From Phycisphaerae bacterium SM23_33 (GTDB lineage Bacteria; Planctomycetota; Phycisphaerae; SM23-33), in contig LJUF01000001.1 in assembly GCA_001303665.1 (NCBI GenBank), positions 1 to 34,088 on the forward strand: a stretch of DNA of 34,088 nucleotides. The letters run 5' to 3'. Under the pieces are notes generated by a model, which did not search any database, was not told where the DNA came from, and saw only the letters and a program-made list of their open reading frames with translations. Below are positions 3,601 to 18,581 of this stretch, one piece after another. Position 1 is the first letter of the stretch. The number at the start of each line of letters is the position of its first letter. Both the position numbers and the translations under genes were made by a program.

Positions 3601-3987
3601 TCATTTCACCACGATTTTGTTGACGACCCTGCCCAGCAGGTCGAAGATGCGGTTCGCGTTGTCCTTGAGCGCCCGTTCCAAGTATTTCTTGCCGGGAACT
3701 TTCGTGCCCTTCGCAGTCGTCCATCCTAATTCTTGGAATGGAGCATAAACCACGTTGCTGCCCACTACGCCTTGCACCGTGTTGCTTTGCTGCCTGACCT
3801 CCGGCGTGATGCTGGCCCTGAGCCGCCCCGTATCCACCGGCGCGTTGATCTTGGCATGGCGTTCAACGAGCAGCGTCGCGTCCCTCATGCCCTGCAGGAA
3901 CGCGCCGCCTTGCAGGTCGCTGACGATCTGCTCCATTTTGGCTTGCACCTTTTCCATTCCCCGGACTTCTACGGTTACGTCGGTCAT
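3601..3987 (-). CDS. HK97 gp10-family head-tail joining protein
   Basis: 128 aa carrying the hallmark APVDTGRLRASI motif of the HK97-gp10-like family. Position is consistent with a neck module. Confidence 0.85.
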   Translation of the reverse strand: MTDVTVEVRGMEKVQAKMEQIVSDLQGGAFLQGMRDATLLVERHAKINAPVDTGRLRASITPEVRQQSNTVQGVVGSNVVYAPFQELGWTTAKGTKVPGKKYLERALKDNANRIFDLLGRVVNKIVVK

Positions 3988-3994
3988 TTGACAA
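3978..3994. repeat. 17-bp perfect direct repeat, copy 1 (cgtcggtcatttgacaa)
   Basis: Identical 17-mer occurs again at 4179-4195, 201 bp away. Copy 1 covers the first 10 nt of the gp10-like CDS (ATGACCGACG on the minus strand) plus the -35 hexamer of P1. Confidence 0.9.
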
Positions 3995-4016
3995 GATTTC
4001 CAATTGATACTATAAT
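3988..4016 (+). promoter_or_regulatory. Consensus sigma70-type promoter P1
   Basis: TTGACA (3988-3993), a spacer of exactly 17 nt, then TATAAT (4011-4016). Both hexamers match consensus perfectly. The predicted start near A4023 coincides with the first paired base of the downstream long stem. Confidence 0.7.
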
Positions 4017-4022
4017 ATCTTC

Positions 4023-4155
4023 ATTAAGCGGTAGAGAGCCTAGCCCTCCCGGGGTGGTAGAGTTGGAGGGGCGTGCCCCACATTAACCTGCGTAGCGTCT
4101 CCCGGTGGGGTTGGTCGGAGACCCAAGCCACCCGCTAGGCTCTTTGCCGCTTAAT
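4023..4155 (+). ncRNA. Unclassified structured RNA candidate (about 133 nt, 22-bp closing stem)
   Basis: 4023-4044 (attaagcggtagagagcctagc) pairs with 4134-4155 (gctaggctctttgccgcttaat) over 22 contiguous pairs. Two of these (4032/4146, 4034/4144) are G-U wobbles only in the plus-strand RNA and would be A-C mismatches on the minus strand. The GC-rich interior has several alternative helices, for example 4097-4102/4117-4122 and 4052-4057/4128-4133. It is followed by AGTTTCT. Confidence 0.45.
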
Positions 4156-4178
4156 AGTTTCTATCACCGCCTACCTAT

Positions 4179-4195
4179 CGTCGGTCATTTGACAA
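4179..4195. repeat. 17-bp perfect direct repeat, copy 2
   Basis: Identical to 3978-3994 and carries the -35 hexamer of P2. On the minus strand it gives only the pseudo-start ATGACCGACGATAGGTAG. Confidence 0.9.
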
Positions 4196-4217
4196 CCTAG
4201 AACATTTGTGTTATACT
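4189..4217 (+). promoter_or_regulatory. Near-consensus sigma70-type promoter P2
   Basis: TTGACA (4189-4194), 17-nt spacer, TATACT (4212-4217). The spacers of P1 and P2 are unrelated, yet both keep the 17-nt spacing and a good -10. Confidence 0.6.
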
Positions 4218-4221
4218 ATGT

Positions 4222-4302
4222 TTGGTTGGCAAGCGATTCGCGCTCGATAGGCGGTTTTCTTTATGCCCCCAATCTGCTAGAGTTGCGGTGCTTGCCAACC
4301 AA
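4222..4302 (+). promoter_or_regulatory. 5' leader stem-loop of the P2 transcript
   Basis: ttggttggcaagc (4222-4234) is perfectly complementary to gcttgccaaccaa (4290-4302), giving a 13-bp stem that begins at the predicted P2 start. The leader runs about 240 nt to the HNH start, with a T6 run at 4331-4336. Confidence 0.4.
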
Positions 4303-4337
4303 CAAGAACCGCCAGCGGAGCGGGGGCACTTTTTTCA

Positions 4338-4440
4338 GGGCGAGACCTGGCGAAGCGAGGCGCGGCATGGCGAGACGAGACGAGGCCTGTCCCGGCTTGC
4401 CCGGTCCTGGCAGGGCGTGGTTGATCGAGGCAAGGCAAGG
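4338..4440. repeat. Degenerate purine-rich repeat block U (upstream flank of the cassette genes)
   Basis: Shares exact words with the downstream block: ggcgagacctg (4339/5373), gcgaggcgcgg (4355/5465), ggtcctggca (4403/5478), ggcaaggcaagg (4429/5428). GAGAC/GAGGC/AAGGC pentamers recur with roughly 10-nt phasing. Confidence 0.6.
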
Positions 4441-4466
4441 ATTATCATAGAAAGGAATGCAGTCAT

Positions 4467-4967
4467 GTGAAATCACCTAGAAATGGATGGCGCGAAGCCG
4501 TCCTGGAACGGGACAATTTTGAATGTCAACTCTCAAAGTTGTTCGGCATAGCTGAGTTGACTGGCGTGCCCTGTTCGGAGGCGTTGCAGGCACATCACAA
4601 GACCTATGAACGATATGGTCAGGAACGCCCGGAAGATGGAATATGTGTTTGTGAAAGGTGCCATGACATCCTAACCGATGCGATAAGGCGCACACGCTAT
4701 TCAGCGAGAAATGCGCAATTCAAATGGGAACGAGATGTCGAAATGGTTACACCGAAACCAAGAAAGGATAAGGACAGTGAAAAAGCTACATTTTACCATC
4801 GTGGGCGAAGCCCCATTACTGATGCACAACGGGCGGCTGGCCGACAGGGACGACCCGTACAGCCGCAAGATGAGCGAGATCTCCAGCAAGAGGAGCAAAA
4901 CCGACGCCGATTACGAAGAACTAGCCAGGATGGAGTTCTTGGGCGGCCTCTACCTAGACGAGAATGA
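4467..4967 (+). CDS. HNH endonuclease (small phage type); C-terminal extent uncertain
   Basis: GTG start with AAAGGAA SD. WREAVLERDNFECQ...LQAHHKTYERYGQERPEDGICVCERCHDILT fits the HNH/zinc-finger pattern. About 43% GC. After about residue 100 the frame turns into Arg/Gln-rich low-complexity sequence that overlaps the next gene. Confidence 0.7.
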   Translation: MKSPRNGWREAVLERDNFECQLSKLFGIAELTGVPCSEALQAHHKTYERYGQERPEDGICVCERCHDILTDAIRRTRYSARNAQFKWERDVEMVTPKPRKDKDSEKATFYHRGRSPITDAQRAAGRQGRPVQPQDERDLQQEEQNRRRLRRTSQDGVLGRPLPRRE

Positions 4968-5361
4968 ACAACCTTGTATCCCCGGTTACGTCTTCGAGGC
5001 GTGTATCATTGGCAAGGGTGGCGCTGCCAGAAAGGAACGGATGGGCAAGGAAGCTGCTGCCGCTGTTTGGGTATTGGATGATGCGCCCTTGGAATATGAT
5101 GGACCGCGTGATCCCCAAGAACTTTGGCAGGACAAACGCTTCATATCGCAGTCTCTTGTCAGGGTGCAACGGAATACCGTCAAGCGCACCCGTCCCCGCT
5201 TCAAGGAATGGCAGGCCAATGTCACGGTCGAGTTCAACGAGAACTTGGTTGACGAGACCGATGTCCGCCGTTGGATTGAAGTCGCTGGTGAGCAAGTCGG
5301 CCTGATGGACTGGCGGCCTCGCTTCGGGCGGTTCCGCGTTGAATGGGACGGGCACAAATAA
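4777..5361 (+). CDS. Unknown protein, possible RAMP-like fold (speculative)
   Basis: ORF 4711..5361. The favoured start is GTG 4777 (AAGGA upstream), giving VKKLHFTIVGEAPLLMHNG... Composition is good throughout. Features include a beta-strand plus LLMHNG, then QPCIPGYVFEACIIGKGG, and a C-terminal GLMDWRPRFGRFRV. I recognise no family with confidence. Confidence 0.6.
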   Translation: MKKLHFTIVGEAPLLMHNGRLADRDDPYSRKMSEISSKRSKTDADYEELARMEFLGGLYLDENEQPCIPGYVFEACIIGKGGAARKERMGKEAAAAVWVLDDAPLEYDGPRDPQELWQDKRFISQSLVRVQRNTVKRTRPRFKEWQANVTVEFNENLVDETDVRRWIEVAGEQVGLMDWRPRFGRFRVEWDGHK

Positions 5362-5365
5362 CAGC

Positions 5366-5535
5366 ATGGCCTGGCGAGACCTGACGAGACTGGACGAGGT
5401 CGGACCTGACGAGACTTGATGGGGTGGGGCAAGGCAAGGGTGCTCTCAATTGTTAATGTACAAGGCGAGGCGCGGTTGGTCCTGGCATGTTCAGGCGCGG
5501 CGCGACCGGGTTGTGTTAGGCAAGGTAGAGCTTGG
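5366..5535. repeat. Degenerate repeat blocks D1+D2 (downstream flank of the cassette genes)
   Basis: D1 is 10-nt phased: ctggcgagac / ctgacgagac / tggacgaggt / cggac ctgacgagac (5371-5415), then ggcaaggcaagg. D2 (5461-5535) matches block U in colinear order with one gap of about 40 nt. Confidence 0.6.
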
Positions 5536-5542
5536 CATGGAA

Positions 5543-5570
5543 AAGGGCTGGCTGAAAAAAGTCAGCCCTT
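5543..5570. terminator. Bidirectional hairpin terminator between convergent units
   Basis: aagggctg (5543-5550) pairs with cagccctt (5563-5570). On the minus strand it lies 2 nt after the connector stop and is followed by TTTTCC. On the plus strand it is followed by TATCATC. The U-tracts are short. Confidence 0.5.
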
Positions 5571-5572
5571 TA

Positions 5573-6256: not shown

Positions 6257-7186
6257 CTAGCGGTGCTCCCCGTACCACTGCACCGTCTTGCGCAGGCCCT
6301 CCAGCAAGGGCGTCCTGGCCTCCCACCCGATGGCGGCCTTGGCCCGGCTGGAGTCCAGCACGCGCCGGGGCTGGCCGTCCGGCCTGGACGTGTCCCATTT
6401 CACGCCGCCCTCGAAGCCCGTCGCGCCCTGGACGTAGTGGACGAGGGCGTCGATGCGCACCTCCTGCCCGCTGCCCAAATTCAGGGGCTCCGGCCTGTCG
6501 TACCTCTCGGCGGCCAGCACCAGCCCCTCGGCGGCGTCTTCGACGTACAAAAAGTCCCGTGACGGCTTGCCCGTGCCCCACACGACGATGTGGTCCTCGC
6601 CCCGCTCCCTGGCCTCGACGCACTTGCGGACGAGCGCCGGGACGACGTGGCTGGTCTCCAGGTCGAAGTTGTCGCGCGGCCCGTACAGGTTCGTCGGCAA
6701 CAGGTATATGCCGTTCATGCCATACTGCTCCCGGTACGCCTGCAATTGCACCAGGAGCATCTTCTTGGCCAGTCCGTAAGGGGCGTTGGTCGGGTCGGGG
6801 TAGCCGGACCACAACGCTTCTTCCCTCTGTTTGTACTCAGCCCGCGGATAAGCACAAACTGTCCCAACTTGGACGAACTTCTCGACGCCGTTCAGCCGGG
6901 CCTGCTCGACGAGCTGGATGCCCATGACGGCGTTCTCGTAAAACAACGTGCCGGGAGACTCTTTATTCAGCCCAATGCCACCCACTACCGCCGCCAGGTG
7001 GAACAGCACGTCCACCGGTCCCGCGTCCAGGAACATCTCAGAGACGCCCGACGGGTAACGCAGGTCGTACCGCGCCGACCGGGGCACGAAGGGCTCGCAG
7101 CCCTCCGCCTTCAGCCTGTCGCAGAGGTGGGAACCAAGGAACCCTGCCCCACCCGTCACGACGACGTTTTTGCCTCTCCAGTCCAT
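6257..7186 (-). CDS. GDP-L-fucose synthase-like NAD(P)-dependent epimerase/reductase (SDR)
   Basis: VVVTGGAGFLGSHL Rossmann motif and YGLAKK (YxxxK). NLYGPRDNFDLETSHVVPALVRK and WGTGKPSRDFLYVEDAAEG resemble Fcl/WcaG signatures. Confidence 0.7.
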   Translation of the reverse strand: MDWRGKNVVVTGGAGFLGSHLCDRLKAEGCEPFVPRSARYDLRYPSGVSEMFLDAGPVDVLFHLAAVVGGIGLNKESPGTLFYENAVMGIQLVEQARLNGVEKFVQVGTVCAYPRAEYKQREEALWSGYPDPTNAPYGLAKKMLLVQLQAYREQYGMNGIYLLPTNLYGPRDNFDLETSHVVPALVRKCVEARERGEDHIVVWGTGKPSRDFLYVEDAAEGLVLAAERYDRPEPLNLGSGQEVRIDALVHYVQGATGFEGGVKWDTSRPDGQPRRVLDSSRAKAAIGWEARTPLLEGLRKTVQWYGEHR

Positions 7187-7722
7187 CGAAATACCCCCAG
7201 CCTCGGATGCACCTCAATCGGTTTCCCCAGGAGCTCGTTGGCCGCCTGGGAAACGCCTATCTGCCCCTCGTCCTCCCCCGTGTAGTCGTGCAGGCAAACG
7301 TAGCCCTCGACGTGCGGCAGCCAGGCCAGCAGGTCGGCCTTGACTTTGTCGTAGAAGTGAGAGGCGTCGTGGAACAGCAGGCTCACCTTCGGCCCCCGCC
7401 AGTCCAGCCCCGCCCGCGTCGAGTCGCTCTTGACGATCCTGACCCATTGGCCCAGGCCCAGGCGCTCGACGTTGGCCTTGGTCGAGTCGAAGTCGGGCGT
7501 CACGTAGCCGGGGTTGGCCGGGTCGAAGTCGTCCACGCCGTAGACGACCTTGTCCGTGCCCTGGCAGGCCAGGGCCAGGGCGCACAGGCTGCGCCCCTGG
7601 CAGACGCCCAGCTCCACGACGACCGCGCCGCCCGGCAGGGCGGCCACCAGGCGCTGCAAGTATCCCAGTTCCAGGCCCATCGTCTGGCCGCTGACCGACT
7701 CCCAAGCATCAGGATGTTGCAC
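7156..7722 (-). CDS. Class I SAM-dependent methyltransferase
   Basis: VVELGVCQGRS motif I, then LLFHDASH...AWLPHVEGYVCLHDY. Paralog of 18574..19098. GTG start with GGAGGA SD. Confidence 0.65.
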   Translation of the reverse strand: MQHPDAWESVSGQTMGLELGYLQRLVAALPGGAVVVELGVCQGRSLCALALACQGTDKVVYGVDDFDPANPGYVTPDFDSTKANVERLGLGQWVRIVKSDSTRAGLDWRGPKVSLLFHDASHFYDKVKADLLAWLPHVEGYVCLHDYTGEDEGQIGVSQAANELLGKPIEVHPRLGVFRWTGEAKTSS

Positions 7723-8248
7723 CGGCCTTCCTCCAAAACGTCGCTTGCCAAGGGTAATCGTTGTACGGCCCCGGCCCGAAGAAGCAGCGTTCCCCCCAAC
7801 CGGATACGTCGAAATGCTCCAAGTAATAAGCCCGATCCGAGTTGTCCAATACCAGCCAGCCGCCCGGTTTGACCTTGGCCTTGGCGTGGCGCAGGCACGA
7901 CGGCCTGGCCCTGCCGTCCACGAAGACCAGGTCGAACGGCTCGAAATCGTCTATGGCCGAGGCGTAGCGCCTGAAATTCTTGCCCGGATAGGATTCGCTG
8001 TAATAATGCTCCGGCTTGGCGGGGTCCGTCCCCAACTCGCCGTCTTCGGGAGGGATGAAAAGAGCCGTGACGTTTTCCAGGTCGGGCTGAAGCTCCCCGT
8101 GCTCGTGCTCGACGGTGACCACCGAAGCTACCCTCTCGGCGAAATAGACGGTGCTGCCGCCGGAGCCCCACTCGAAGACGCGCATGTCCGGCGTCAAAAT
8201 GCTGTCCAAGAACTCTTGGGCGACGTAAGGAATCCAAGGAACGGCCAT
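7709..8248 (-). CDS. Class I SAM-dependent methyltransferase-like protein
   Basis: VFEWGSGGSTVYFA (motif I-like) and DLVFVDGRAR. ATG 8248 overlaps the upstream stop (TGATG). Confidence 0.55.
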   Translation of the reverse strand: MAVPWIPYVAQEFLDSILTPDMRVFEWGSGGSTVYFAERVASVVTVEHEHGELQPDLENVTALFIPPEDGELGTDPAKPEHYYSESYPGKNFRRYASAIDDFEPFDLVFVDGRARPSCLRHAKAKVKPGGWLVLDNSDRAYYLEHFDVSGWGERCFFGPGPYNDYPWQATFWRKAGATS

Positions 8249-8865
8249 CACGCCTTCTCGAAAATGTACGTCGCTTGGGGATGCTCCGTCCAATACTCCC
8301 GCCAAACCGCGCTCAACCCCCGCTCCTCGTAGAAGTTCAGCAGTTCCCGCTCATTGTGGACGTGGGTGTACGTCGGCTGGCCGGGGTAGCCGGTCGTGTC
8401 GTTGCGCACGGTCGGCCCCCCGTGGACGCGGACGCGGTGCAAGACGAGCTTGCCTGTCAGTGTTTGACATAATGCCTCACTACCCCTGGCCCAATCGTCC
8501 ATGACCTCTATGAGACTGGAGGCCAGCACCACGTCGTGTCCGGCGTAGTCGTGGCCCACCATGTCGGCCACGAAGAACTCGCGCCCTGGCCACAGCCTTC
8601 TGGCCTCGTCCACCATATGAGGCGAGAAGTCGAAACCGGTATACCGGACGCGGGGATAGCGCCGGGCCAGGACCTCCGAGTAATGTCCCACCCCGCAACC
8701 GGCGTCCAAGAGGGTCGCCGCCCCGCCCAGTCGCTCCATCGCCCTCAGGAAATACTTGAACGGCGGGTGGGTCTCCCAATCCGGCTTGGCCAGGTCCTCC
8801 AGGGCCAGCGCCCCCATCGCCTCCGCCACCCCCGCGTCCAGCCAACTCTTGTAAGGGTCTACCAT
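8248..8865 (-). CDS. Class I SAM-dependent methyltransferase (Methyltransf_11/25-like)
   Basis: LLDAGCGVGHYS motif I, followed by YTGFDFSPHMV and VVLASSLIEV. Confidence 0.75.
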   Translation of the reverse strand: MVDPYKSWLDAGVAEAMGALALEDLAKPDWETHPPFKYFLRAMERLGGAATLLDAGCGVGHYSEVLARRYPRVRYTGFDFSPHMVDEARRLWPGREFFVADMVGHDYAGHDVVLASSLIEVMDDWARGSEALCQTLTGKLVLHRVRVHGGPTVRNDTTGYPGQPTYTHVHNERELLNFYEERGLSAVWREYWTEHPQATYIFEKA

Positions 8866-9695
8866 TTCGACTGCGCCCCCCTGATGGCCGCCACGTAAGG
8901 CTTATAAACGTGCTCGCGCTGCCAACCGCTCACCTCGTAGGTGCTGGGGTACATCTGATTCTCTCCCTGGAAACCGTGATAGTGCCACCACAGGAGCGGC
9001 TCGCCGCCCACGCGGACCTGGCCGTCCTCGACGGAATACCTGCGGTGCTCCGCATTCCACGGGGCGCGGTTGGCCCCTGGGTGCTGAATGGCGTGGACGT
9101 GCCACCGCTTCTCAAGAACGCTGTCCCAGTATTTCTGGTCGCAGAATCTCTCTGGGTGGTCGGGCTCGTGCCGGAGGTAGCACCATTCTAGGCAGAGCCG
9201 CCGCCACTCCCCGATGCAGGCCAGCCCGTCGTCGTCTCTCTTGGCGTGGACCAGGCCGACGTTGTACTTGCCGTTGCGCTCGAACCCCTTCAGCCTGGGC
9301 GGGAAGTCGTGCGGCGTGATGGCCAGGGAACGGCCGCCTATCTCTTGGAAAACCGGCTCCGGATCGGCGAAGAACATGATGTCGGCGTCCAGGTAGTTGA
9401 CGTGGTCCACCGGGCCGTTCCTGAGCACGAACAGCATCCAGCCGGGCGTGCAAGTCCAGTAGAACTCCCGCAGGCTCCTGGTGGCTCGCGCGGCCCGCAG
9501 CGCGTCGTCCTCGAAGCTGGCCATGCCGATGATGCTGACGTTCGGCAAGGCCAACTTGACCAGGCCGTTCACGACGGCGTCGTCGAGGGCCAGGACCCAC
9601 AGGTGGTATTCCGGGCAATGGCGCTCCAGCGACTCCCACAGAACATAGCCTTTGTGACGGTAGGCCCAGTCGAAGTAAGTGCAAAAGTACCTCAA
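8859..9695 (-). CDS. Glycosyltransferase, GT-A fold (GT8-like, DXD)
   Basis: YLDADIMFF DXD motif, YNVGLV, and CDQKYW. The likely start is TTG 9695 (GAGGAG-N6) overlapping the upstream stop as TTGA. The ORF track maximum is 9773. Confidence 0.6.
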   Translation of the reverse strand: MRYFCTYFDWAYRHKGYVLWESLERHCPEYHLWVLALDDAVVNGLVKLALPNVSIIGMASFEDDALRAARATRSLREFYWTCTPGWMLFVLRNGPVDHVNYLDADIMFFADPEPVFQEIGGRSLAITPHDFPPRLKGFERNGKYNVGLVHAKRDDDGLACIGEWRRLCLEWCYLRHEPDHPERFCDQKYWDSVLEKRWHVHAIQHPGANRAPWNAEHRRYSVEDGQVRVGGEPLLWWHYHGFQGENQMYPSTYEVSGWQREHVYKPYVAAIRGAQSKW

Positions 9696-10321
9696 CCTAA
9701 ACTCCTCGCGTACTCTAAATCGCCTGGGGTATTGACGTTCACCGCATGGCCCTGGGTGAGAACAAGCTGGCAACCTATAAACCCGAATGTCGCACTGAGC
9801 TCAGTGAATTTTGAAATCGTAGGAATTCTATCTAGCGTCGGCCTGGATAGGTGAGCTACCCCACCAAACGAAAAACCTCTTGGGTCTGGAGGTGTTGCGA
9901 CACTGGCCCTGACCGCAACACCCTCTTCAAAATACAGGCGTGTCCCCCGCCCATCGTATGGTTTCACAACGGCCACAGAATCTGGCTTGTCCAGAACGCA
10001 CTGCACTACTTCATTACTGATGAACATGTCAGCATAGGTCATTACTAAACTCTTCTCAAGTGGGAACATCTGTGATGCAAGATGAAGTGAGTACAGGCTG
10101 CCTGTCTCAAAATATTGACTGTTAAACACGTACGCCGCCCTAACCGCTTGCATGACCATCGTGGCTCGATAGCCCACGACAATAACTACATCAAGGCTAT
10201 TTCCCTTGAGAATGCGAATCTGTCTCTCAAGTATGGATTCATCCCCGACCTTCAACAACGACTTGGGCAGGGGGAATCCCATGCGTTCCCCCTTGCCAGC
10301 GGCAAGCACGATGGCCTTCAT
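9692..10321 (-). CDS. Nucleotidyltransferase (LicC/PntC/sugar-1-P NTP-transferase class)
   Basis: MKAIVLAAGKGERMGFPLPKSLL is the GXGXR signature of the NTP_transferase family. ATG 10321 forms an ATGA overlap with the upstream stop. About 45% GC. Confidence 0.7.
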   Translation of the reverse strand: MKAIVLAAGKGERMGFPLPKSLLKVGDESILERQIRILKGNSLDVVIVVGYRATMVMQAVRAAYVFNSQYFETGSLYSLHLASQMFPLEKSLVMTYADMFISNEVVQCVLDKPDSVAVVKPYDGRGTRLYFEEGVAVRASVATPPDPRGFSFGGVAHLSRPTLDRIPTISKFTELSATFGFIGCQLVLTQGHAVNVNTPGDLEYARSLG

Positions 10322-11037
10322 CTGTGCGACTTGCACCTCCTGCAAATGTCAAGGAATCTGTCGCCAACCGAAAGCCGGTTGTACGTCTCCCGAACCCGTG
10401 AAGAAAACAGAATCTCCTCAAGCGTCCCGTCAGTGAGGCTCCCGAAAGTGTGGCGGTACTTCCAATCCATGCAGCAAAGTCCGACCTCGGCGTCCCGCGT
10501 GATGACGACTTGGCCCAGCGGTGCCCGACACGGAACGTTGCGATCCACATACGGTGCCGCATAAATCTTCAACCTGTCGTCCAAGCCCCCGCGATCCATG
10601 TAAGTGACGCCCGGCCAATCCCTGGCCTCCACGTCGCCGTACAGAGTCACGACGATGTGGTTCACCCCCGCCTCCATAAGCTCTTGGGCCAGACCCCGTG
10701 TCAGGTAGTGCCCGTTAGTCTCGATAATGACCTGTGACTCCGGGCAACAGTCTTTAGCCTTGCCTATGAACAGAAACAGGCGCGGGTCAATCAGGGGCTC
10801 GTTGTATTGGTTGAAATAAATCTTGCCGCCATAGCCGTACTTCCCCAGCGTCTTAAGAACGCCATATACCGTTTCCATAGAGATGATCTTGGGCTCCCTG
10901 ACCCGCCAGGTCGAAGCCATTTCCAGATGCAACGGACATTTCTTGTGAAGCCACGAATACTGGCACAGGTTCGACAGCTCTATGGCGACGCCGGTCGTGA
11001 ACTCGAAGGGATTCACAGAACCCTCGCCCTGAGCCAT
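10318..11037 (-). CDS. Radical SAM/SPASM-like protein with non-canonical N-terminal Cys motif
   Basis: Radical-SAM-like core blocks (IELSNLC, YNEPLIDP, IIETNGHYL, IVVTLYG) and a C-terminal SPASM/twitch-like Cys pattern (CRAPLG...GLCC...CRRC). Where CxxxCxxC is expected it has only CQYSWLHKKC. Confidence 0.5.
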   Translation of the reverse strand: MAQGEGSVNPFEFTTGVAIELSNLCQYSWLHKKCPLHLEMASTWRVREPKIISMETVYGVLKTLGKYGYGGKIYFNQYNEPLIDPRLFLFIGKAKDCCPESQVIIETNGHYLTRGLAQELMEAGVNHIVVTLYGDVEARDWPGVTYMDRGGLDDRLKIYAAPYVDRNVPCRAPLGQVVITRDAEVGLCCMDWKYRHTFGSLTDGTLEEILFSSRVRETYNRLSVGDRFLDICRRCKSHR

Positions 11038-11756
11038 CGGCTCGTCAAGTCAAGCGACAGGACTACGAACAAGATGATGCAGATGATCATGCTCGTCTTG
11101 CCATAGTCGAACAATCCCATAGAGGCTGTCAATTCCAGCCCCAATCCACCCGCTCCGGCCACGCCCAGCAACGTGGCCTGCCGGAAACTGGACTCGAAAC
11201 GGTAGAGCAGGAAGGACAACGCGGCGTTGGCTTGCGCTGGCAGAAAGATGTATACGTAGCCTTGAAACTTGTTCGCGCCGTCTATGGCGGCGGCGTCCAT
11301 GATCTCCGGCTCCGTCGCTTCCAGATTCTCGGACAGTAGCTTCCCAAGCACGCCGCCGGAATAAATCCACACGCCCATTATCCCGGCGAGCGAGCCGAGC
11401 CCGACGGCGGCCACGAAAAGGATGCCCAGGATCATGGCGGGGATACTGCGCATGGCAAGCAGCATGGTCCGCCCGCACAGGTACACAATCCAGTTCTGCG
11501 TCATGTTCCAACTGGCCGCCCATGCCAGTGGGATTGCCGAGAGAAAACCCAGCGTCGTGCCGAACAGCGCGATCTTCGCCGTCTGCCAAAGCGCCGGCAG
11601 GAGACCGGGCAACGCCCGGAAATCGGGGGGCCACAGCTTGGACAGATACCGCAGTATCCTCGGCATCCCCGTGCATATCTCGAACGCATCCCCGCTGAAT
11701 ATCATGGCGGCAAGGAGCAAGATAGTAAGCCATGAAAGGAATCGGGCCGCGGTCAT
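11013..11756 (-). CDS. phnE: PhnE-like ABC transporter permease (phosphonate/phosphite family)
   Basis: Multi-TM protein with RSIPAMILGILFVAAVGLGSLAGIMG, GKLLSENLEA and AAAIDGANKF blocks resembling PhnE. ATGA overlap with phnD. Confidence 0.65.
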   Translation of the reverse strand: MTAARFLSWLTILLLAAMIFSGDAFEICTGMPRILRYLSKLWPPDFRALPGLLPALWQTAKIALFGTTLGFLSAIPLAWAASWNMTQNWIVYLCGRTMLLAMRSIPAMILGILFVAAVGLGSLAGIMGVWIYSGGVLGKLLSENLEATEPEIMDAAAIDGANKFQGYVYIFLPAQANAALSFLLYRFESSFRQATLLGVAGAGGLGLELTASMGLFDYGKTSMIICIILFVVLSLDLTSRWLRARVL

Positions 11757-12601
11757 TCAACCAAGCCCTCTTCCATCAGGACGCGGACGTAGTCGTAGTC
11801 GGAATCTGCCCCTGGCACGAACCCCTTGACTTGGTCGCACCCGGCGAACGCTTCATCTGAAAGGCTGAGCAATGCATTTCTAACACGTTCTTTCAGTCTG
11901 GAATCCATGTCCGCCCTGACTCCCCAGCAATTCATGGGAATGGGCGGCGTGGTCGCCAAAATCACAAAGTCCTCGCCCGGCACCCCCGCCCCCTGGCTGA
12001 CGGCCAGATTGGTCCGCCAGTCGTTCGTGCCGCCAGCGTCCACGCTGCCCGCGACGACAGCCTCCAGCACGGCTGGGTGGCTACCGAGAAACCCATACTC
12101 GGCCAAGTCATCCAACTCAATGCCATTCTCCTTCATGTTGACCACGTTGGACAGGTAACCAGACGTGGAGCCGATGTCGGGGAAGGCCATCGTCTTACCC
12201 TTGAGTTGGTTGAATGTGAACGGTTCGTCCCAGATACCGGGGCGACCGATGATGATGCCGTGACACTCGGCGATGCCCTCCGGGTTGATCTCTCTCACCA
12301 AGGGCTCAACGCCGATCTGCTCATGAGCCTGGATATAGGGCATCCCACCCAGGCGGGCCATGTCCGCCGTGCCGTTGGCCAGTGCCTCGACCACGGCTGC
12401 GTATTCCGTCGTAGTCTGCATCTCTACGTCCACGCCTAGTTTTTCCTCCAGCTCTGCGATGACGCCGCCATAAGCGGCTATGGCCGTAGCCGAATCAATG
12501 CCCGGCGCGGGCGAGAACACAATACGAAGCGTCTCTCTCCGCGTTGGCGCACATGCGGCCAACACCAGGACCAGCAATACAAAGGATTTCCTAAAATTCA
12601 T
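11753..12601 (-). CDS. phnD: PhnD-like substrate-binding lipoprotein (phosphonate/phosphite ABC family)
   Basis: Lipobox signal (LVLAAC), RIVFSP, YAAVVEALANGTADMARLG, and PDIGSTSGYL, all typical of the Phosphonate-bd family. Confidence 0.65.
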   Translation of the reverse strand: MNFRKSFVLLVLVLAACAPTRRETLRIVFSPAPGIDSATAIAAYGGVIAELEEKLGVDVEMQTTTEYAAVVEALANGTADMARLGGMPYIQAHEQIGVEPLVREINPEGIAECHGIIIGRPGIWDEPFTFNQLKGKTMAFPDIGSTSGYLSNVVNMKENGIELDDLAEYGFLGSHPAVLEAVVAGSVDAGGTNDWRTNLAVSQGAGVPGEDFVILATTPPIPMNCWGVRADMDSRLKERVRNALLSLSDEAFAGCDQVKGFVPGADSDYDYVRVLMEEGLVE

Positions 12602-13229
12602 AACCGAACCTCCTTATCAATTCCCCGTCCATCCGGGCCACCAACGCCTTGCTTTCTTCGTTGTAATACTCTTGGTATGGATGCACTGCTTCCCAACGTG
12701 TGCGCTTTAAGTTGGGATCCGGGTGCCTGTCAACCCTGGCAGTGCCGACACTTCTTATAATTTGATCCGCTTCCTCCGCTGTGACCAAGTCTGGCACGAT
12801 GCCGACTTTGGCAAAGACCGGGACGATACCGCTATACCAGTCTTCCATACGCACGATGTAATCCGCCTTGTCGGCCTGCATCATTTCCCAATAGATGGTC
12901 AGCGACACACACGAGCCGTGGCGTTTTTGCGAAACCAATTTCACATATTCATTGAAGTCCCCCTGAAAATGCGTGTAATCAACGACGCGAACCCACGACC
13001 AGAAGGCGACGTACCATGACCACGGATTGCGTATGAAGGCGATGGCTGGCGGGACCAGCAACCCGCGACTGGTGTACGTCTCAGCTAAATGCTTGTAAGC
13101 CAAATGTTTTGCCTTCACAGCCCCTATCGGCTTTAATCCATGCTTTCGCAACTCTCTCAGGATGCGATCAAAAGCAGTTCCGCCGCATCGCGTCACATGA
13201 AGGTGTATCAGTCTATCGTGCGTGGGCAT
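12591..13229 (-). CDS. Sulfotransferase family protein (paralog 1)
   Basis: HLHVTRCGGTAF (5'-PSB-like P-loop) and FIRNPWSWYVAFW (3'-PB-like RNPxxRxxS class). ATG 13229 aligns with the paralog's start (MPTHDRL versus MLTDRL). C-terminal YYNEES...IRRFGYEF is shared with the paralog. Confidence 0.65.
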   Translation of the reverse strand: MPTHDRLIHLHVTRCGGTAFDRILRELRKHGLKPIGAVKAKHLAYKHLAETYTSRGLLVPPAIAFIRNPWSWYVAFWSWVRVVDYTHFQGDFNEYVKLVSQKRHGSCVSLTIYWEMMQADKADYIVRMEDWYSGIVPVFAKVGIVPDLVTAEEADQIIRSVGTARVDRHPDPNLKRTRWEAVHPYQEYYNEESKALVARMDGELIRRFGYEF

Positions 13230-13251
13230 TTCGGCGTTGAGGTCGTTGTAT

Positions 13252-13905
13252 TCAATCAAAGGTGTACCCAAAACCTTTTATTATAATCTCGTCCCACTCT
13301 TCCACCCAACGGCGGTTTTCTTCGGTGTAATATCTTTTGTAGTCGCCGGGCGGCTCTCCTTCGGGCGTCAATGCGGGGCGATAATGCCACTCTTGCGAGA
13401 TAAAATACCTGACGATCTCCTCGGCGGTCATTCGCTCGACGGGTCCCTGGCCGCAGGCGTCGTAAACGGCCATGACGTTGTCTCTTGCATACTTCAATAC
13501 AATGCGGACGATCTCATCGAATAGATTCTCGAACCGGATAACGTCATCGGCGTCATTCGCTCCCAGCCACTCCATTAGGCACCACGTCTGGGTACGAAAG
13601 TCCGGAAACCTTTCGCCTCTTCGTACCTCCTCCAGATATTCACTGAAGCTGCCAAAAAAACAGGTCATGGGGTGGCCCCTCACACGGCACCATCGCTCCA
13701 CGTACCATTCCCACGGATTGCGGACGATGGTTACCGCTGGCGGCATTGATATGCCAAGTTGCCTGACAAGAACCTTATACTCATCATAGGTTCCATGTTC
13801 CGGGTCGGCATAAATCAATATCCCCGGCAATCTTCTGAGAACCCCTGTCAAGACCTTCCCGCCTGAGCGTGGCGGACGCAGGACAGCCAATCGGTCAGTC
13901 AGCAT
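13252..13905 (-). CDS. Sulfotransferase family protein (paralog 2)
   Basis: LRPPRSGGKV, IVRNPWEWYVERW, and YYTEENRRWVEEWDEIIIKGFGYTF. Clearly paralogous to 12591..13229. Confidence 0.6.
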   Translation of the reverse strand: MLTDRLAVLRPPRSGGKVLTGVLRRLPGILIYADPEHGTYDEYKVLVRQLGISMPPAVTIVRNPWEWYVERWCRVRGHPMTCFFGSFSEYLEEVRRGERFPDFRTQTWCLMEWLGANDADDVIRFENLFDEIVRIVLKYARDNVMAVYDACGQGPVERMTAEEIVRYFISQEWHYRPALTPEGEPPGDYKRYYTEENRRWVEEWDEIIIKGFGYTFD

Positions 13906-15067
13906 CTTTCACCAAGCACCGCCCGTCCACCTTGTATCCCTCTCGGAGCAACTTCTCACAAAGCGAAGCCAAACCGAAATGGCCCCACCACGTCCCGAAG
14001 CAGACGGTGTCTTGCAAGGCTGCATTTGGGGCGATTTCTTGGCCGTACCATGACGAGGAATAGTCGCGCTGCATCTGGGCCTGAAGCTGAGACGAAAGCG
14101 TCCTGAGTCTCCACCCGTGTTCTCCGAACTGCGGATTGCGGACTTTGGCCACTTCCGGCGCAACTCTTTTCAGGATTTGATGGCGATAGGACCCAACCTG
14201 CGATTCCTGTTGGCCCAGCCCGTATTCATGCAGGACGCGGATCATATCGGGGACCAAGTAGGGAAACACCCATTCCCCCTTGACGGGGGCGAAAAAGTAA
14301 GGGTGATAAGGCAGGACGCGAAACACCCAGTCCAGCCCAGGGCCGTTGACCAGCGCATGCGTCACGTCGTTGGCGAGGTAGCCGGAAAAACATTGCAGCT
14401 CGCCGTCGTCTTCAGGGATGAGGCCCTCCTCCTGGAGGTAGTCAACAGGATCGTACCAATAATTGAAACACCTGGCCCACAGGCCCCCGTTCTGCCGCTT
14501 CCACGCGTCCTCGAAGCGGCACGATCTGGCATGGTGATTCTCAAACAGCGGCTTTACGCCGCCCCCGTAAACCGCGAACTTGGAGCGTTCCCATCCCTCC
14601 GCTTCCAGTGCCATCCGTGAGTGCCTGTGCTCCCCCTCCACCTCCACGAACAGTATTTCGCCCAGCCATTCCGGGCCGTTCTTTTCAAATAGTTTCCTGA
14701 TCGTGTGAGAAATCAGGCGGCTGTCGTAGCCCCCGGAGTGCAAGACGACATGAAATCGCCCCGGCGTCCAGGCTCCCTCCACCACACCCACGAAGGCATC
14801 ATAGAGTAGGTCCAAGAACTTTCCTCTACCGATTTTTTTCCTGTCCGGCGGGTCGGCGGCCAGCGCCTCCATCTCCTCGCCCCACGTCGCCTCCGGGGGC
14901 ATCATGTCGATCTCGCGGAACATCGTCTTGCAATGCCGCTGCCTGGGGTCGACGCCGTAGCCGGTCTCGTAAATCCGAAAGTACGGCTCCCTTCTGAGAG
15001 TCAGCACGTCCGGCAGTATCTCGTGGATCCAGGGCGATTGCCCAACGCTACTCTTGAATAGATTCAT
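13895..15067 (-). CDS. PP-loop ATP-pyrophosphatase superfamily protein (asparagine-synthetase-like domain)
   Basis: VVLHSGGYDSRLIS matches the SGGxDS PP-loop. ATG 15067 (MNLFKSS) follows the upstream stop by 2 nt. The N-terminal 123 codons of the track ORF are Arg/Gly junk. Confidence 0.55.
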   Translation of the reverse strand: MNLFKSSVGQSPWIHEILPDVLTLRREPYFRIYETGYGVDPRQRHCKTMFREIDMMPPEATWGEEMEALAADPPDRKKIGRGKFLDLLYDAFVGVVEGAWTPGRFHVVLHSGGYDSRLISHTIRKLFEKNGPEWLGEILFVEVEGEHRHSRMALEAEGWERSKFAVYGGGVKPLFENHHARSCRFEDAWKRQNGGLWARCFNYWYDPVDYLQEEGLIPEDDGELQCFSGYLANDVTHALVNGPGLDWVFRVLPYHPYFFAPVKGEWVFPYLVPDMIRVLHEYGLGQQESQVGSYRHQILKRVAPEVAKVRNPQFGEHGWRLRTLSSQLQAQMQRDYSSSWYGQEIAPNAALQDTVCFGTWWGHFGLASLCEKLLREGYKVDGRCLVKDAD

Positions 15068-15069
15068 AA

Positions 15070-15984
15070 CTATCCCAACTTCCCCAAGTAATGCGCGAAC
15101 GTCCCCGGTATGGCCTCCTTGCGGAAATACTCCAGCCACACCCACCGGGCCTCCTCGCCGTGCGCCCGCAACTGCGCGTCGGTGTGGGTATCCAAAATCT
15201 GCTTGACGCGTTCGTTCATGACCGGCGCGTCGCTCTCCGGGAAGACGAACATGAATTTGCTGTAATCCACGAAGTCCTCGAAGGGCAGCTCGTACTCGTC
15301 TCCCATCCAGACGGGCGGCCTCCCTGCGCTCATGGCCTCCCAAGTCCGGTAGGCGTCCAGCTCGACCCCTCGCGGGCTGAGCGCCAGCTTGCTCTGCGCG
15401 AAGGCGTTGACGAACTCTTCCCGGCGCTCCCGCCACTGCTCCGTACCTTCGGGGATGTAGCCGAAGAAGTCGTCATAAAAGCGCATGAGGGACTTGATGG
15501 ACTTGTCATCGGCCACGGCGTGGCAGGCCCGACGCCGCACGTCGCAGGCCCCGTCCCTGCCGACGAAGCAGACGTCGTAAGGCAGCGTGCCGAAGTCCGC
15601 CGGTTCCGGCTCGAAATCGTCCACGAAATGGGGCACGCTGACCGTCAGCGGGTTGGGGTCCCTGCGCGACTTCACGGCGCGGAACAGGACCGACGGCAAA
15701 CCCCAGTCGTCCGAGCACGCGCTGTAGTCGTGGAAGAACCAGCGGTGCTCGTTGCCCCGGTAGTCCGGCAGGGACTGGACGAACGAGCGGACGTATTCCG
15801 CCCCGCCGCCGTGCCCGCCCCCGCTGTCCCACCAGATGAGGCCGAGGTCGACCGGGGTGTAGAGCCAGTCGGCCCCGTCCGGGCCGGGGACGAACTCGAA
15901 ATGCTCTCCCGTCCCTGGGTTGTCCAGCAGGATGTCGCGCTTGGCCCTGGGGTGGTTGGTCAGGCAGGCGTGGACTTTGATCAC
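15070..15984 (-). CDS. Exostosin-like glycosyltransferase (GT47-like), paralog A
   Basis: LALSPRGVELDAYRTWEAMSAGRPPVWM fits the exostosin C-terminal signature. GTG 15984 forms a GTGA overlap with the upstream stop. Paralog of 16200..17087. Confidence 0.65.
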   Translation of the reverse strand: MIKVHACLTNHPRAKRDILLDNPGTGEHFEFVPGPDGADWLYTPVDLGLIWWDSGGGHGGGAEYVRSFVQSLPDYRGNEHRWFFHDYSACSDDWGLPSVLFRAVKSRRDPNPLTVSVPHFVDDFEPEPADFGTLPYDVCFVGRDGACDVRRRACHAVADDKSIKSLMRFYDDFFGYIPEGTEQWRERREEFVNAFAQSKLALSPRGVELDAYRTWEAMSAGRPPVWMGDEYELPFEDFVDYSKFMFVFPESDAPVMNERVKQILDTHTDAQLRAHGEEARWVWLEYFRKEAIPGTFAHYLGKLG

Positions 15985-16190
15985 AGCGCTCTCTTTTTTA
16001 CATCCTTCCGTGGCCTTAGCTTGAGACATTCCGGGCAAGTCACGTTGTGCCAATAGGCGCTGTGCGCCACCCGTGTCCCCGGCAACCCGCACGCAGTGTT
16101 CCAATTGAAGCCCTTCAGAGGTTGCCGCGATGCGGGCCAGACCCAAAAATGAATTACACCCTTCTCCCCAGCACGTTCGCCAAAACCCAT
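15981..16190 (-). CDS. Small Cys/His protein (possible zinc ribbon), unknown function
   Basis: 69 aa with protein-like composition (HFWVWPASRQPLKGFNWNTACGLPGTRVAHSAYWHNVTCPECLK). ATG start. It exactly fills the gap between the two GT47-like genes. Lower GC. Confidence 0.5.
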   Translation of the reverse strand: MGFGERAGEKGVIHFWVWPASRQPLKGFNWNTACGLPGTRVAHSAYWHNVTCPECLKLRPRKDVKKRAL

Positions 16191-16199
16191 CTCGGCCCC

Positions 16200-17087
16200 C
16201 TATAACATTTCCTCCAAATACCTCAACACCATGTCGTCCCACCTGGCCGGGGCCAGCCAGTCCGCCCAGGCCCGCCGCGCCCTGTGCGCCATTTCCCGCA
16301 TACAGGACTGCGGGCGGCAACGTTCGTTGATGGCCATGATCTCCCCGGCCACAGACGCGGCCCTGGCCTCCGGCACTTGAAAGGAGCAGGCATCCCAGTC
16401 CACGTATTCGGGCATGGGCAGCGCGTAGTCGTCGGCCAAGACGACGGGGATGCGGCCCGCGCTCATAGCCTCGAACAGCCGGTAAGAGTGCTGGCCCGCG
16501 CCCCTGGGGGCCAGCACCAGCCTGGACTGCTTCAGCGCGTCTATGAAAATCTGCCTGCGCTGGTCCCCCTCCGGCGTGCCCTCGTAGCGGCCCCAGTGCC
16601 TATTGACGGTGTCCAGGTAGCAGTTCAGTCCGGGGCAGGCCCTCAGCGAGTCCAGGCAGCGCCGCCGGACGCCCAGCGGGTCATGGTCCAGGCCGACGAA
16701 GCAGACGTGGTACAAAAGCTGCTCGTAGTCCATCCCGGCCAGCCGCCCGAAGTCGTCCACCGCCGGGGGCCAAGGGACCACGTTGGGGTCGCGGCGGCGC
16801 TTGTCCACCGACTGCCTGAAGACGACGGCCTGCGTCCCGATAGGGGCGTCCTCGTCCGAGTGCATCCACAGGACGTGTCGGCGCTCGTGCTTCTCCCAGG
16901 TCGGCAGCCTGGCCAGTGTGGGCAGCACGCCTCCCACTCGCTGGGGGTGCCTGCGCTCCACGTCGCCCAGCTCGACCAGGACCACGAAAGCGTCGGCCTC
17001 GGCGGGGTTCTCCGTATATTCGAGCGTGGTCGGCCTGGCCACGGGTCGGGCGGGAACGTCCAGTTCGGTATAGGCGTAGACTTTCAC
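16200..17087 (-). CDS. Exostosin-like glycosyltransferase (GT47-like), paralog B
   Basis: LVLAPRGAGQHSYRLFEAMSAGRIPVVL, with HVCFVG as in paralog A (DVCFVG). Confidence 0.65.
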   Translation of the reverse strand: MKVYAYTELDVPARPVARPTTLEYTENPAEADAFVVLVELGDVERRHPQRVGGVLPTLARLPTWEKHERRHVLWMHSDEDAPIGTQAVVFRQSVDKRRRDPNVVPWPPAVDDFGRLAGMDYEQLLYHVCFVGLDHDPLGVRRRCLDSLRACPGLNCYLDTVNRHWGRYEGTPEGDQRRQIFIDALKQSRLVLAPRGAGQHSYRLFEAMSAGRIPVVLADDYALPMPEYVDWDACSFQVPEARAASVAGEIMAINERCRPQSCMREMAHRARRAWADWLAPARWDDMVLRYLEEML

Positions 17088-17416
17088 GTGTAATCGTCCT
17101 CGTCAAAGTGCTCCGACGCCAGCACGAGGCACAGGGCGTCGGGGCTGAAGTTCTCCAATGTGCGGCGGGCCGTCGGCTTGACATAAAGCCCCGTCCGGGG
17201 CGAATCCAGCCGGTGGCGCTCCTCGTCCACCACCACGTCGAGGCGGCCCCGCAAGGCCACCATCACCATCCGGCAGGTCTTCATGGCGTGCCCGCCCCGC
17301 GTCTCGCCGGGCGGGACGTTTTCGATCCAGAACGCCCGCTTGACGTCGAAGGGGAGCTCGCACACCGTCAGGCCGCCCCGGTGGTCGGGATAGGTCATGA
17401 ATTCAATGATCGGCAA
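17084..17416 (-). CDS. FdtA/WxcM-like cupin (NDP-4-keto-6-deoxyhexose 3,4-ketoisomerase family)
   Basis: DHRGGLTVCELPFDVKRAFWI...TRGGHAMK...LYVKP...ALCLVLASEHFDEDDY follows the FdtA pattern, except that HAM replaces the usual HAH. TTG 17416 has GGAGG-N6. The alternative start is ATG 17398. Confidence 0.6.
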   Translation of the reverse strand: MPIIEFMTYPDHRGGLTVCELPFDVKRAFWIENVPPGETRGGHAMKTCRMVMVALRGRLDVVVDEERHRLDSPRTGLYVKPTARRTLENFSPDALCLVLASEHFDEDDYT

Positions 17417-18275: not shown

Positions 18276-18296
18276 TTTACTTCCCCATCTCTTGCC

Positions 18297-18581
18297 CTAC
18301 TGCCTCGCCCTAAAAGCGCTGAACAATGCAGACCAACGCCCCCGTTCACACACTTGACGAATTTGCCAGTATCTCGCCTCGGCATTGTCCCATTCACAAC
18401 TTGTCTCCAAAAACTGATTATAGTGCCAATTTTTGCACTTATCGCACCATTCATAGGTGGCCCTGCAATCAAGCAGTTGCCTGATACCCGATCCGAAATA
18501 CCACGTCCAGCCACGCGCTACCGTCCCGGTTAGAAATAATGCGACACTAATCACAAACATCGCCAAAGGTATGCTAGACAC
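18297..18581 (-). CDS. Small membrane-anchored Cys-rich protein, unknown function
   Basis: N-terminal TM helix (IPLAMFVISVALFLTGTV), then CRATYEWCDKCKNWHYNQFLETSCEW...VCERGRW. About 48% GC. GTG 18581 or ATG 18560. Confidence 0.45.
   Translation of the reverse strand: MSSIPLAMFVISVALFLTGTVARGWTWYFGSGIRQLLDCRATYEWCDKCKNWHYNQFLETSCEWDNAEARYWQIRQVCERGRWSALFSAFRARQ

Follow-up and report, generated by a model that had tools for sequence, protein, structure and literature searches.

Directly behind a promoter of perfect consensus, the DNA of Phycisphaerae bacterium SM23_33 (contig LJUF01000001.1) carries a long inverted repeat. The question raised by this locus is what the repeat encodes: a structured RNA, as a preliminary description made from the letters alone had put forward, or something else. 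We have analyzed the whole stretch of 34,088 nucleotides in which it lies (hereafter the window). The hairpin sequence will be referred to as RNA1, and its immediate surroundings are as follows:

3978-3994, + strand: left copy of an exact 17-nt direct repeat, CGTCGGTCATTTGACAA
3988-4016, + strand: P1, a sigma-70-type promoter, TTGACA-17-TATAAT, 12/12 (-35 at 3988, -10 at 4016)
4023-4155, + strand: RNA1, closing stem 4023-4044/4134-4155 around an 89-nt interior
4179-4195, + strand: right copy of CGTCGGTCATTTGACAA
4189-4217, + strand: P2, TTGACA-17-TATACT with TG before the -10, 11/12

The hairpin and its promoter

When the sequence was read through, position 4023+k was found to pair with position 4155-k for every k from 0 to 21. 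The 22-bp stem with two G-U pairs that had been described is hence confirmed base by base, U4032-G4146 and G4034-U4144 being the only non-Watson-Crick pairs. A repeat search returned the same arms, 22 nt each and 89 nt apart, their DNA sequences being 91% complementary. No other local stem of the 34-kb window is as long. In 40 mononucleotide shuffles the longest stem averaged 16 bp and never exceeded 21 bp with G-U counted like Watson-Crick pairs, and an analytic estimate places the chance expectation of a stem with 2 G-U among 22 pairs at about 3e-5 per window. The inverted repeat is real and beyond chance; it could represent a recent palindromic duplication instead of a selected helix.

A fold calculation had been proposed as a check and came out in favor of a structured plus strand. 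The minimum free energy of the + strand is -69.4 kcal/mol (z = -4.0), a value that none of 200 dinucleotide shuffles equaled; that of the - strand is -59.5 kcal/mol (z = -2.7). The interior is GC-rich, as had been noted (67% G+C), and its 89 nt are predicted to form a three-way junction. It was also right that RNA1 holds no open reading frame: no ATG occurs within it, and the sole in-frame start is a GTG that opens a frame of 10 codons not preceded by a ribosome-binding site.

P1 is the only 12/12 sigma-70 site in the 34 kb, both strands having been scanned, and its -35 abuts the start codon of a divergent phage gene encoding a tail-completion protein. The position of the stem directly behind this promoter was likewise borne out, its first base being the seventh base after the -10 hexamer. 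Judging from this arrangement, RNA1 is probably transcribed from P1 on the + strand.

Comparison with known RNA families gave no assignment, in agreement with the preliminary description. Rfam produced no match at the gathering score and, at E<=10, microRNA noise only; ARAGORN detected neither a tRNA nor a tmRNA; and none of the riboswitches and ribozymes of Rfam was found, including the hammerhead, which separates vrRNAs (the guide RNAs discussed below) in some VIPR types. A resemblance to Y RNAs had been suggested as an analogy. It was not upheld: no Y RNA or YrlA match was obtained from Rfam at E<=10, and no Ro (Rsr)/TROVE family was hit among the ORFs scanned with Pfam. A retron was also considered, and no reverse transcriptase family was found when 34 ORFs, including all genes of the cassette described below and its neighbors, were compared with Pfam or PHROGs.

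The 3' side of the hairpin bears on where its transcript would end. The stem is flanked by CTTC on one side and by AGTT on the other; AGTTTCTATCACC follows it directly, and then come the right-hand 17-mer and P2. The sequence 3' of the stem reads GCCGC-UUAAUAGUUUCUAUC, a weak U-rich stretch. A consensus scan calls no intrinsic terminator at RNA1, AGUUUCUAUC coming after five A-U closing pairs. This sequence can be looked at in a different way, namely that RNA1 acts in trans as a small RNA in its own right, about 135-145 nt long and running from P1 to the U-rich UUAAUAGUUUCUAUC. Its target would belong to the host or to a rival phage, and it would be a mere passenger next to VIPR. A perfect promoter, a paired 5' end, a G+C-rich stem and a U-rich sequence are what a typical small-RNA gene has. 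The cassette in which RNA1 lies is moron-like, with promoters and a terminator of its own, and the confinement of RNA1 to one phage is often seen with strain-specific accessory RNAs. However, no terminator is called, and the U-run amounts to just UUUCU after the five A-U closing pairs. We regard an independent small RNA as unlikely, also in view of features that RNA1 has in common with a neighboring module (see below).

A VIPR cassette in a phage structural module

The window covers a phage structural module, with terminase, portal, protease and major capsid genes on the minus strand. RNA1 is located in a cassette within this module. The preliminary description had not recognized this context: the second promoter and hairpin, the pentamer repeats, the HNH and Vipr genes, and the nature of the block as an insertion. 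The components of the cassette and its flanks are the following:

3601-3987, - strand: tail-completion gene, HK97 gp10-like, left flank of the insertion
3988-5572, + strand: cassette of 1.6 kb between the head-tail adaptor and tail-completion genes
4338-4466, + strand: vrRNA1, about 20 YNNGG/YNNGA pentamers
4467-4967, + strand: vap, small accessory gene of HNH type, initiated at GTG (HNH PHROGs)
4777-5361, + strand: vipr, RAMP-like Vipr protein of 194 aa (phrog_4652; PDB 36pp_D)
5365-5540, + strand: vrRNA2 and vrRNA3, pentamer-repeat units 3' of vipr
5541-5572, no strand assigned: distal terminator-like hairpin of the cassette (A-run 5', T-rich 3'), abutting the adaptor stop codon
5573-6244, - strand: head-tail adaptor gene, right flank of the insertion

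In cassette-free relatives, whose tail-completion proteins are 69-73% identical, the adaptor stop codon lies 9 nt from the tail-completion ATG or overlaps it, and the 4 nt ATGA are present at both cassette junctions here. This comparison with relatives shows the segment 3988-5572 to be an insertion. The relatives of the tail-completion protein in the protein database reach at most 73% identity and are devoid of the cassette; a search of IMG/VR with the same protein returned no relatives of the phage.

VIPR systems were first described in 2026, as comprising a RAMP-like Vipr protein, an accessory gene (vap) and vrRNAs (bioRxiv 10.64898/2026.04.26.720920, 10.64898/2026.04.26.720927). A vrRNA is about 100 nt long, with 9-16 YNNGG (GGY/NN) repeats and a 3' tail (bioRxiv 10.64898/2026.04.26.720920). 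The vrRNAs guide dsDNA binding and silence rival phages, and VIPR is related to the CRISPR RAMP proteins; the examples described are from Escherichia phage SUSP1 and a P. fulva prophage (bioRxiv 10.64898/2026.04.26.720920, 10.64898/2026.04.26.720927). The vipr product of the window matches 36pp_D, the "SUSP1 Vipr protein", over its full length, with E = 1.3e-38 for the family profile and 3.9e-27 for the single sequence; 36pp is the one solved structure that the family profile matches. The pentamer-repeat units measure about 80-130 nt, are G-rich with a 5-nt periodicity and short tails, and lie on both sides of vap-vipr. Exact YNNGG in register account for 12/21, 7/15 and 11/16 pentamers in vrRNA1, vrRNA2 and vrRNA3, respectively, many of the others being YNNGA. 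Since both the Vipr homologue and the periodic tracts match the VIPR definition, the locus is a VIPR system.

The A/T-rich tail of vrRNA1 extends into the vap ribosome-binding site, and the last 191 nt of vap overlap vipr in a different reading frame. The vap/vipr pairing and an overlap of 185-191 nt are kept in related loci, and a small HNH gene directly upstream of vipr was found in 66 of 166 loci, including nearly all of those with a Vipr more than 50% identical to that of the window. The arrangement differs from that of Felixounavirus wV8, where the gene adjoining vipr is downstream of it; here vap is of HNH type, upstream and overlapping.

The 3' end of RNA1 lies 622 nt upstream of vipr. 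Both belong to one strand of the same inserted cassette, and from this position we read RNA1 as the outermost non-coding module of the VIPR cassette. As in described VIPR loci, the system is phage-encoded and RNA1 is non-coding, in the "long intergenic sequence" flanking vipr; unlike a vrRNA, RNA1 is closed by a 22-bp stem. We rejected RNA1 as a further vrRNA: it has at most two consecutive YNNGG and 2/26 in its best register, compared with 7-12 units in register in vrRNA1-3, and a 3' tail of the A/T-rich vrRNA type, GGCA(A/G)GGA...ATTAT..., was not found in it. The analogy with guide scaffolds that had been drawn beforehand can be retained in one respect, as the hairpin does belong to an RNA-guided locus, and has to be abandoned in the other, the guides being the adjacent YNNGG vrRNAs and not RNA1. 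When vrRNA1-3 were examined for self-targeting under the 1-nt-skip rule, no match was obtained in P1 or RNA1; the best one, 23/32, falls in the adaptor gene.

Homologues of RNA1 were searched for at several levels. The 166 VIPR loci contained none by blastn and nhmmer, and a single-sequence covariance model (R1) run over about 860 kb found no homologue, its best foreign match scoring 19.6 bits (E = 0.12). There was no match in phage (megablast, blastn) and plasmid collections, nor to the exact arm pattern in IMG/VR. A degenerate 17-mer over both arms retrieved 75 loci from 185,579 GTDB species genomes. They are single chance matches, the exception being an unrelated 28-nt tandem repeat in locus L087, and two inverted copies of the arm pattern were never found in these genomes. 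As to the phage itself, all 11 of 11 contigs of the same phage that span the region are 100% identical over their overlap, with no polymorphism. Because no homologue was obtained and the phage contigs are identical, there is no comparative evidence for or against the RNA1 stem.

These searches also bear on whether RNA1 might be a mobile element, a MITE with 22-bp terminal inverted repeats. Its 133 bp and the near-perfect 22-bp inverted repeats at its termini would suit such an element. However, it is not flanked by a target-site duplication, the 17-nt direct repeats being 28 and 23 nt away; it is present in single copy in the window, and neither the GTDB species genomes nor the phage and plasmid collections contain dispersed copies. 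A MITE is hardly credible, and we rejected it for the lack of a flanking duplication and of further copies.

A recurrent leader at related VIPR loci

A second promoter and stem module, here termed RNA2, lies 200 nt downstream of the first and immediately precedes vrRNA1:

4222-4336, + strand: RNA2, VIPR leader
4222-4235/4289-4302, + strand: S1, closing stem of RNA2
4250-4256/4307-4313, + strand: helix a1:b1
4264-4270/4322-4328, + strand: helix a2:b2
4330-4335, + strand: U-run, with CAGGG next

About 170 loci with Vipr homologues were fetched for comparison with this leader. The same architecture was identified in 11 loci (the window, L095, L098/99, L103, L105, L111, L115, L127, L177, L261 and L264): a consensus-like promoter, a closing stem, a pseudoknot and a U-run. 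The U-run is succeeded by CAGGG with the first vrRNA, or immediately by vap. The closing stem measures 10-18 bp in 10 of the 11 loci and starts 2-7 nt past the -10; positions drawn at random show a stem of at least 10 bp in 10% and one of at least 14 bp in 0.3% of cases. In L105 the automated search for a closing stem failed and an internal one was assigned by eye; the L264 leader was assessed by eye only, and no U-run was called in L111. Two segments of the loop, a1 and a2, pair with two segments 3' of the stem, b1 and b2, and their order a1<a2<b1<b2 is that of an H-type pseudoknot. The loop-tail duplex beats all or nearly all shuffled tails in 7 of the 10 RNA2-type leaders tested; the pairing was not significant against shuffled tails in L095 and L105.

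The helix sequences of the leaders are unrelated from one locus to another. L098 and L177 form the sole closely related pair: their helices keep 98% of paired cells, against at most 48% for slid partners. The stem differs by one compensatory double change, from A-U to U-A, and a2:b2 by five changes from U-A to U-G. The RNA2-type leaders of related loci gave no family when compared with Rfam. An automated scan for leaders with crossing stems returned 14 sense and 7 antisense matches; it was too strict and missed known cases, and we give it no weight as evidence.

The leaders also inform on the coding strand of RNA1. In 11 of 12 modules, RNA1 among them, the fold of the sense strand is more stable than that of the antisense strand and has more G-U pairs, G-rich composition contributing to the difference. 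The proposal that a plus-strand RNA is more plausible than a DNA palindrome is strengthened by this result and by the layout that the 11 related leaders share. It had originally been based on the two G-U pairs being specific to the plus strand, an argument that is correct but weak: such an outcome has a prior of about 1/4 by chance, and the G-rich + strand folds better anyway.

The functional form might instead be the DNA or the minus-strand RNA, acting as an RNase III-type hairpin that processes or stabilizes the late mRNA just before the tail-completion gene, as a cis-antisense partner of that mRNA, or as a cruciform or binding site for the HNH protein during movement of the cassette. Transcripts of the late genes, which lie on the minus strand, must cross the cassette in antisense to reach the tail-completion gene; the - strand retains a fold with z = -2.7; a hairpin stands at each end of the cassette, and a 22-bp duplex is long enough for RNase III. 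Against this, both wobbles turn into A-C mismatches on the - strand, P1 faces the opposite way, and other VIPR loci are co-directional with their neighbors, yet have sense-strand leaders. We consider a minus-strand or DNA function very unlikely. A likeness exists to lambda OOP and P22 sar, which are short, hairpin-rich RNAs transcribed from a strong promoter antisense to a phage operon. RNA1 differs from them in that it overlaps neither the tail-completion coding sequence nor its ribosome-binding site.

Several of the 11 leaders directly precede vap-vipr and not a guide RNA. In the SUSP1-like phage wV8 a shorter leader hairpin is similar to the tail between vrRNAs, which suggests that leaders may delimit the first guide RNA on its upstream side. 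Like a CRISPR leader, the module is a promoter-bearing non-coding region that heads a guide-RNA locus; CRISPR leaders are A/T-rich elements that function as DNA, in transcription and in the acquisition of spacers, and do not form compact structured RNAs, and we know of no acquisition step in VIPR. In the two reports on VIPR there is no mention of a promoter-proximal structured leader, nor are the transcription, bounds and processing of the guide array treated (bioRxiv 10.64898/2026.04.26.720920, 10.64898/2026.04.26.720927). The recurrent leaders point to a directly testable cis-regulatory layer of VIPR. The stem-pseudoknot-U-run leader of this VIPR clade is better supported and more general than RNA1.

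Possible origin of RNA1 and its place in a proposed P1 transcript

RNA1 and RNA2 were compared directly, and two further elements were located:

4055-4097, + strand: part of the RNA1 interior, weakly and collinearly similar to RNA2 4275-4322, including the 8-mer TAGAGTTG
4166-4173, + strand: ACCGCCTA, spacer element separating RNA1 from P2, complementary at every position to TAGGCGGT (4248-4255) in the RNA2 a1 arm

The two modules have in common the 17-nt sequence around the -35, the sequence ACCGCC at a similar distance 3' of the closing stem, and TAGAGTTG, which a search of the whole window located only at 4058-4065 (RNA1) and at 4278 (RNA2). The local alignment of 4055-4097 with 4275-4322 scores above those of all 125 other chunks of the window (p about 0.02, a post hoc and marginal value). 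This weak similarity and the common motifs argue against a separate origin of RNA1 as an independent small RNA. RNA1 also resembles an RNA2-type leader in its G-rich sense strand with G-U pairs and in its location at the 5' edge of the vap-vipr cassette. It differs in its longer stem (22 bp versus 10-18), in the apparent absence of the a1:b1/a2:b2 pseudoknot, and in having neither a vrRNA nor vap directly after it.

When the three features of the leaders were looked for in RNA1, one was clearly present: the 12/12 promoter with a stem beginning 7 nt after the -10. As to the loop-tail pairing, GGUGGU (4053) and ACCGCC (4166) are a candidate a1:b1, the best duplex having -19.3 kcal/mol (p = 0.22), and no b2 segment was detected. 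The third is not present: RNA1 is not succeeded by a U-run, CAGGG and then a vrRNA or vap. Overall, RNA1 looks like an extra, orphan leader-like RNA in the VIPR cassette.

The 17-mer gives an indication of how such a module could have arisen. CGTCGGTCATTTGACAA is present in two exact copies 201 nt apart, 0.08 being expected, and joins the initial 10 nt of the tail-completion gene on the minus strand (ATGACCGACG, read reversed) to the -35 hexamer. In view of this composition, the right copy, before P2, is a gene fragment that recombination left behind. The RNA1 unit proper comprises the 184 nt (3995-4178) between both 17-mers. RNA1 does not appear to derive from a recent simple tandem duplication of RNA2, because the 17-mers are identical and the remaining units barely alignable; recombination between two allelic cassettes is the more likely source of the unit.

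The same evidence can be read as the trace of a mere accident, RNA1 being a functionless scar of illegitimate recombination or palindromic duplication, with P1 created through the -35 contained in the duplicated 17-mer. The 184-nt unit does lie between direct repeats that carry 10 nt of the adjoining gene, its interior resembles a decayed version of the RNA2 3' half in which the U-run has been destroyed, and RNA1 is an orphan. It is hard, however, to obtain by accident a perfect TATAAT at a spacing of precisely 17 nt to the duplicated -35 and a stem at a leader-type start, and 20 Watson-Crick plus 2 G-U pairs are unexpected in a decaying sequence. We hold a functionless scar to be distinctly unlikely.

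The explanation that we favor, and to which we give about an even chance, is that RNA1 is derived by divergence from a leader of this VIPR clade. It would have kept the strong promoter and the long closing stem at the transcription start, would have lost the pseudoknot-terminator, and would make up the 5' end of a P1 transcript reading into the VIPR operon. The descent from a leader is suggested by the features compared above. According to this proposal, host RNA polymerase would initiate at about 4023, and the 22-bp stem would seal the 5' end of RNA1 as a compact, nuclease-resistant domain. As no efficient terminator follows RNA1, transcription from P1 would read through and would therefore generate a second, longer transcript class, which would continue past P2 and RNA2 into vrRNA1-vap-vipr.

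Any regulatory effect of RNA1 might be exerted through the spacer. ACCGCCTA is a possible remnant b1 arm or a possible anti-terminator. In the thermodynamic fold of the long transcript, the spacer ACCGCCUA (4166-4173) pairs with RNA2 a1 and alters the RNA2 fold; the wider spacer:RNA2 duplex has -30.5 kcal/mol, which is not significant against shuffles (p = 0.08). Within a P1 transcript, ACCGCCUA could thus pair with UAGGCGGU (4248-4255) of RNA2 a1, remodel the pseudoknot and terminator, and shift read-through. This competing-helix logic, with its 8-nt complement in the spacer after RNA1, and the hairpin and U-run with which RNA2 precedes genes are reminiscent of attenuators. The differences are that no ligand, protein or ribosome sensor is known, that the competing pairing is without statistical support, and that RNA1 has no terminator.

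A more far-reaching and speculative proposal, to which we assign a low probability, is that RNA1 and RNA2 represent an undescribed class of promoter-proximal, pseudoknotted leaders that control how the vrRNAs and vap-vipr are expressed and how their 5' ends form. Transcripts from P2 would stop at the pseudoknot-terminator of RNA2, and those from P1, which contain RNA1 and ACCGCCUA, would refold RNA2 into a form that allows read-through into the guide array. If true, an RNA-guided silencing system would here be under the control of a switch built from two promoters. RNA1 is less important than the recurrent leaders, as it is an orphan of a single genome; its value is that of a natural terminator-less leader upstream of an intact one, and as such a natural variant it could reveal how read-through is controlled.

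A recurrent leader of VIPR loci

In this VIPR clade, a structured leader recurs 5′ of vap-vipr (the genes of the HNH-type accessory protein and of the RAMP-like Vipr protein) or of the first vrRNA, the VIPR guide RNA, both in the window and in 10 other loci. Its parts are a promoter and, beginning at the transcription start, a closing stem, together with an H-type pseudoknot (a1:b1, a2:b2) and a U-run. The leader has no corresponding Rfam family and is absent from the text of the VIPR preprints.

Positions of the VIPR leader in the window and in fetched loci (L-numbers)
window, 4222-4336
L095, 2913-3040
L098, ~150-265
L177, ~2571-2686
L103, 169-~300
L105, 534-~705
L111, 1149-~1262
L115, 792-~950
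L127, 168-~270
L261, ~58-180
L264, ~500-615

A promoter (TTGACA..TATACT) is also present in the SUSP1-like VIPR locus of Escherichia phage wV8 (L263, 1113-1210). Downstream of it comes a short hairpin leader, the 3′ part of which is similar to the inter-vrRNA spacer.

Overlapping genes and degenerate guide RNAs

Of 12 loci checked, 9 show the HNH vap ORF and vipr overlapping by 185-191 nt in different reading frames: the window (4467-4967 versus 4777-5361), L090, L092, L095, L098, L100, L103, L177 and L260. Within these loci vap has a conserved stop position and a conserved arginine-rich tail motif, and it is missing from the public gene calls shown for them.

The three vrRNAs of the window's phage (4338-4445, 5365-5540) are degenerate, many YNNGA, YNNGT or YNNGC replacing YNNGG pentamers, and low-complexity CGAGA repeats open vrRNA1. 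Scored by the published 1-nt-skip rule, the adaptor gene of the phage itself (5702-5749, minus strand) agrees with the NN code of vrRNA3 at 23 of 32 positions, a value barely over the maximum of 22 reached in 200 shuffles and lower than the 80% applied by the preprint to good targets.

The cassette and its phage surroundings

The first 10 nt of the tail-completion gene form part of a 17-nt direct repeat (3978-3994 and 4179-4195); a fragment of this gene therefore lies inside the cassette, before the leader promoter P2, and looks like the footprint of recombination between cassette variants. Also within the cassette, a promoter-like site (TTCACA-16-TATGAT, 10/12; 4444-4471, minus strand) is directed at the tail-completion gene and could restore its transcription after insertion.

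The capsid and adaptor genes are separated by a large auxiliary block (~6257-22500, minus strand). Among its genes are those of several methyltransferases, of glycosyltransferases (two GT47-type and one GT2) and of the following:
11753-12601 (-), PhnD-like phosphonate-binding protein
11013-11756 (-), ABC permease
10318-11037 (-), radical SAM/SPASM protein
6257-7186 (-), NAD-dependent epimerase

A second HNH endonuclease gene (Pfam HNH_3; 33059-33823, minus strand) adjoins the large terminase gene, which is the usual terminase-associated position, and bears no relation to vap. Eleven contigs (L004 and L005-L014), which come from no fewer than 10 separate metagenome or run assemblies (ENA, JGI, Logan), agree at 100% identity over the same phage region; for an environmental phage such uniformity is unusual.
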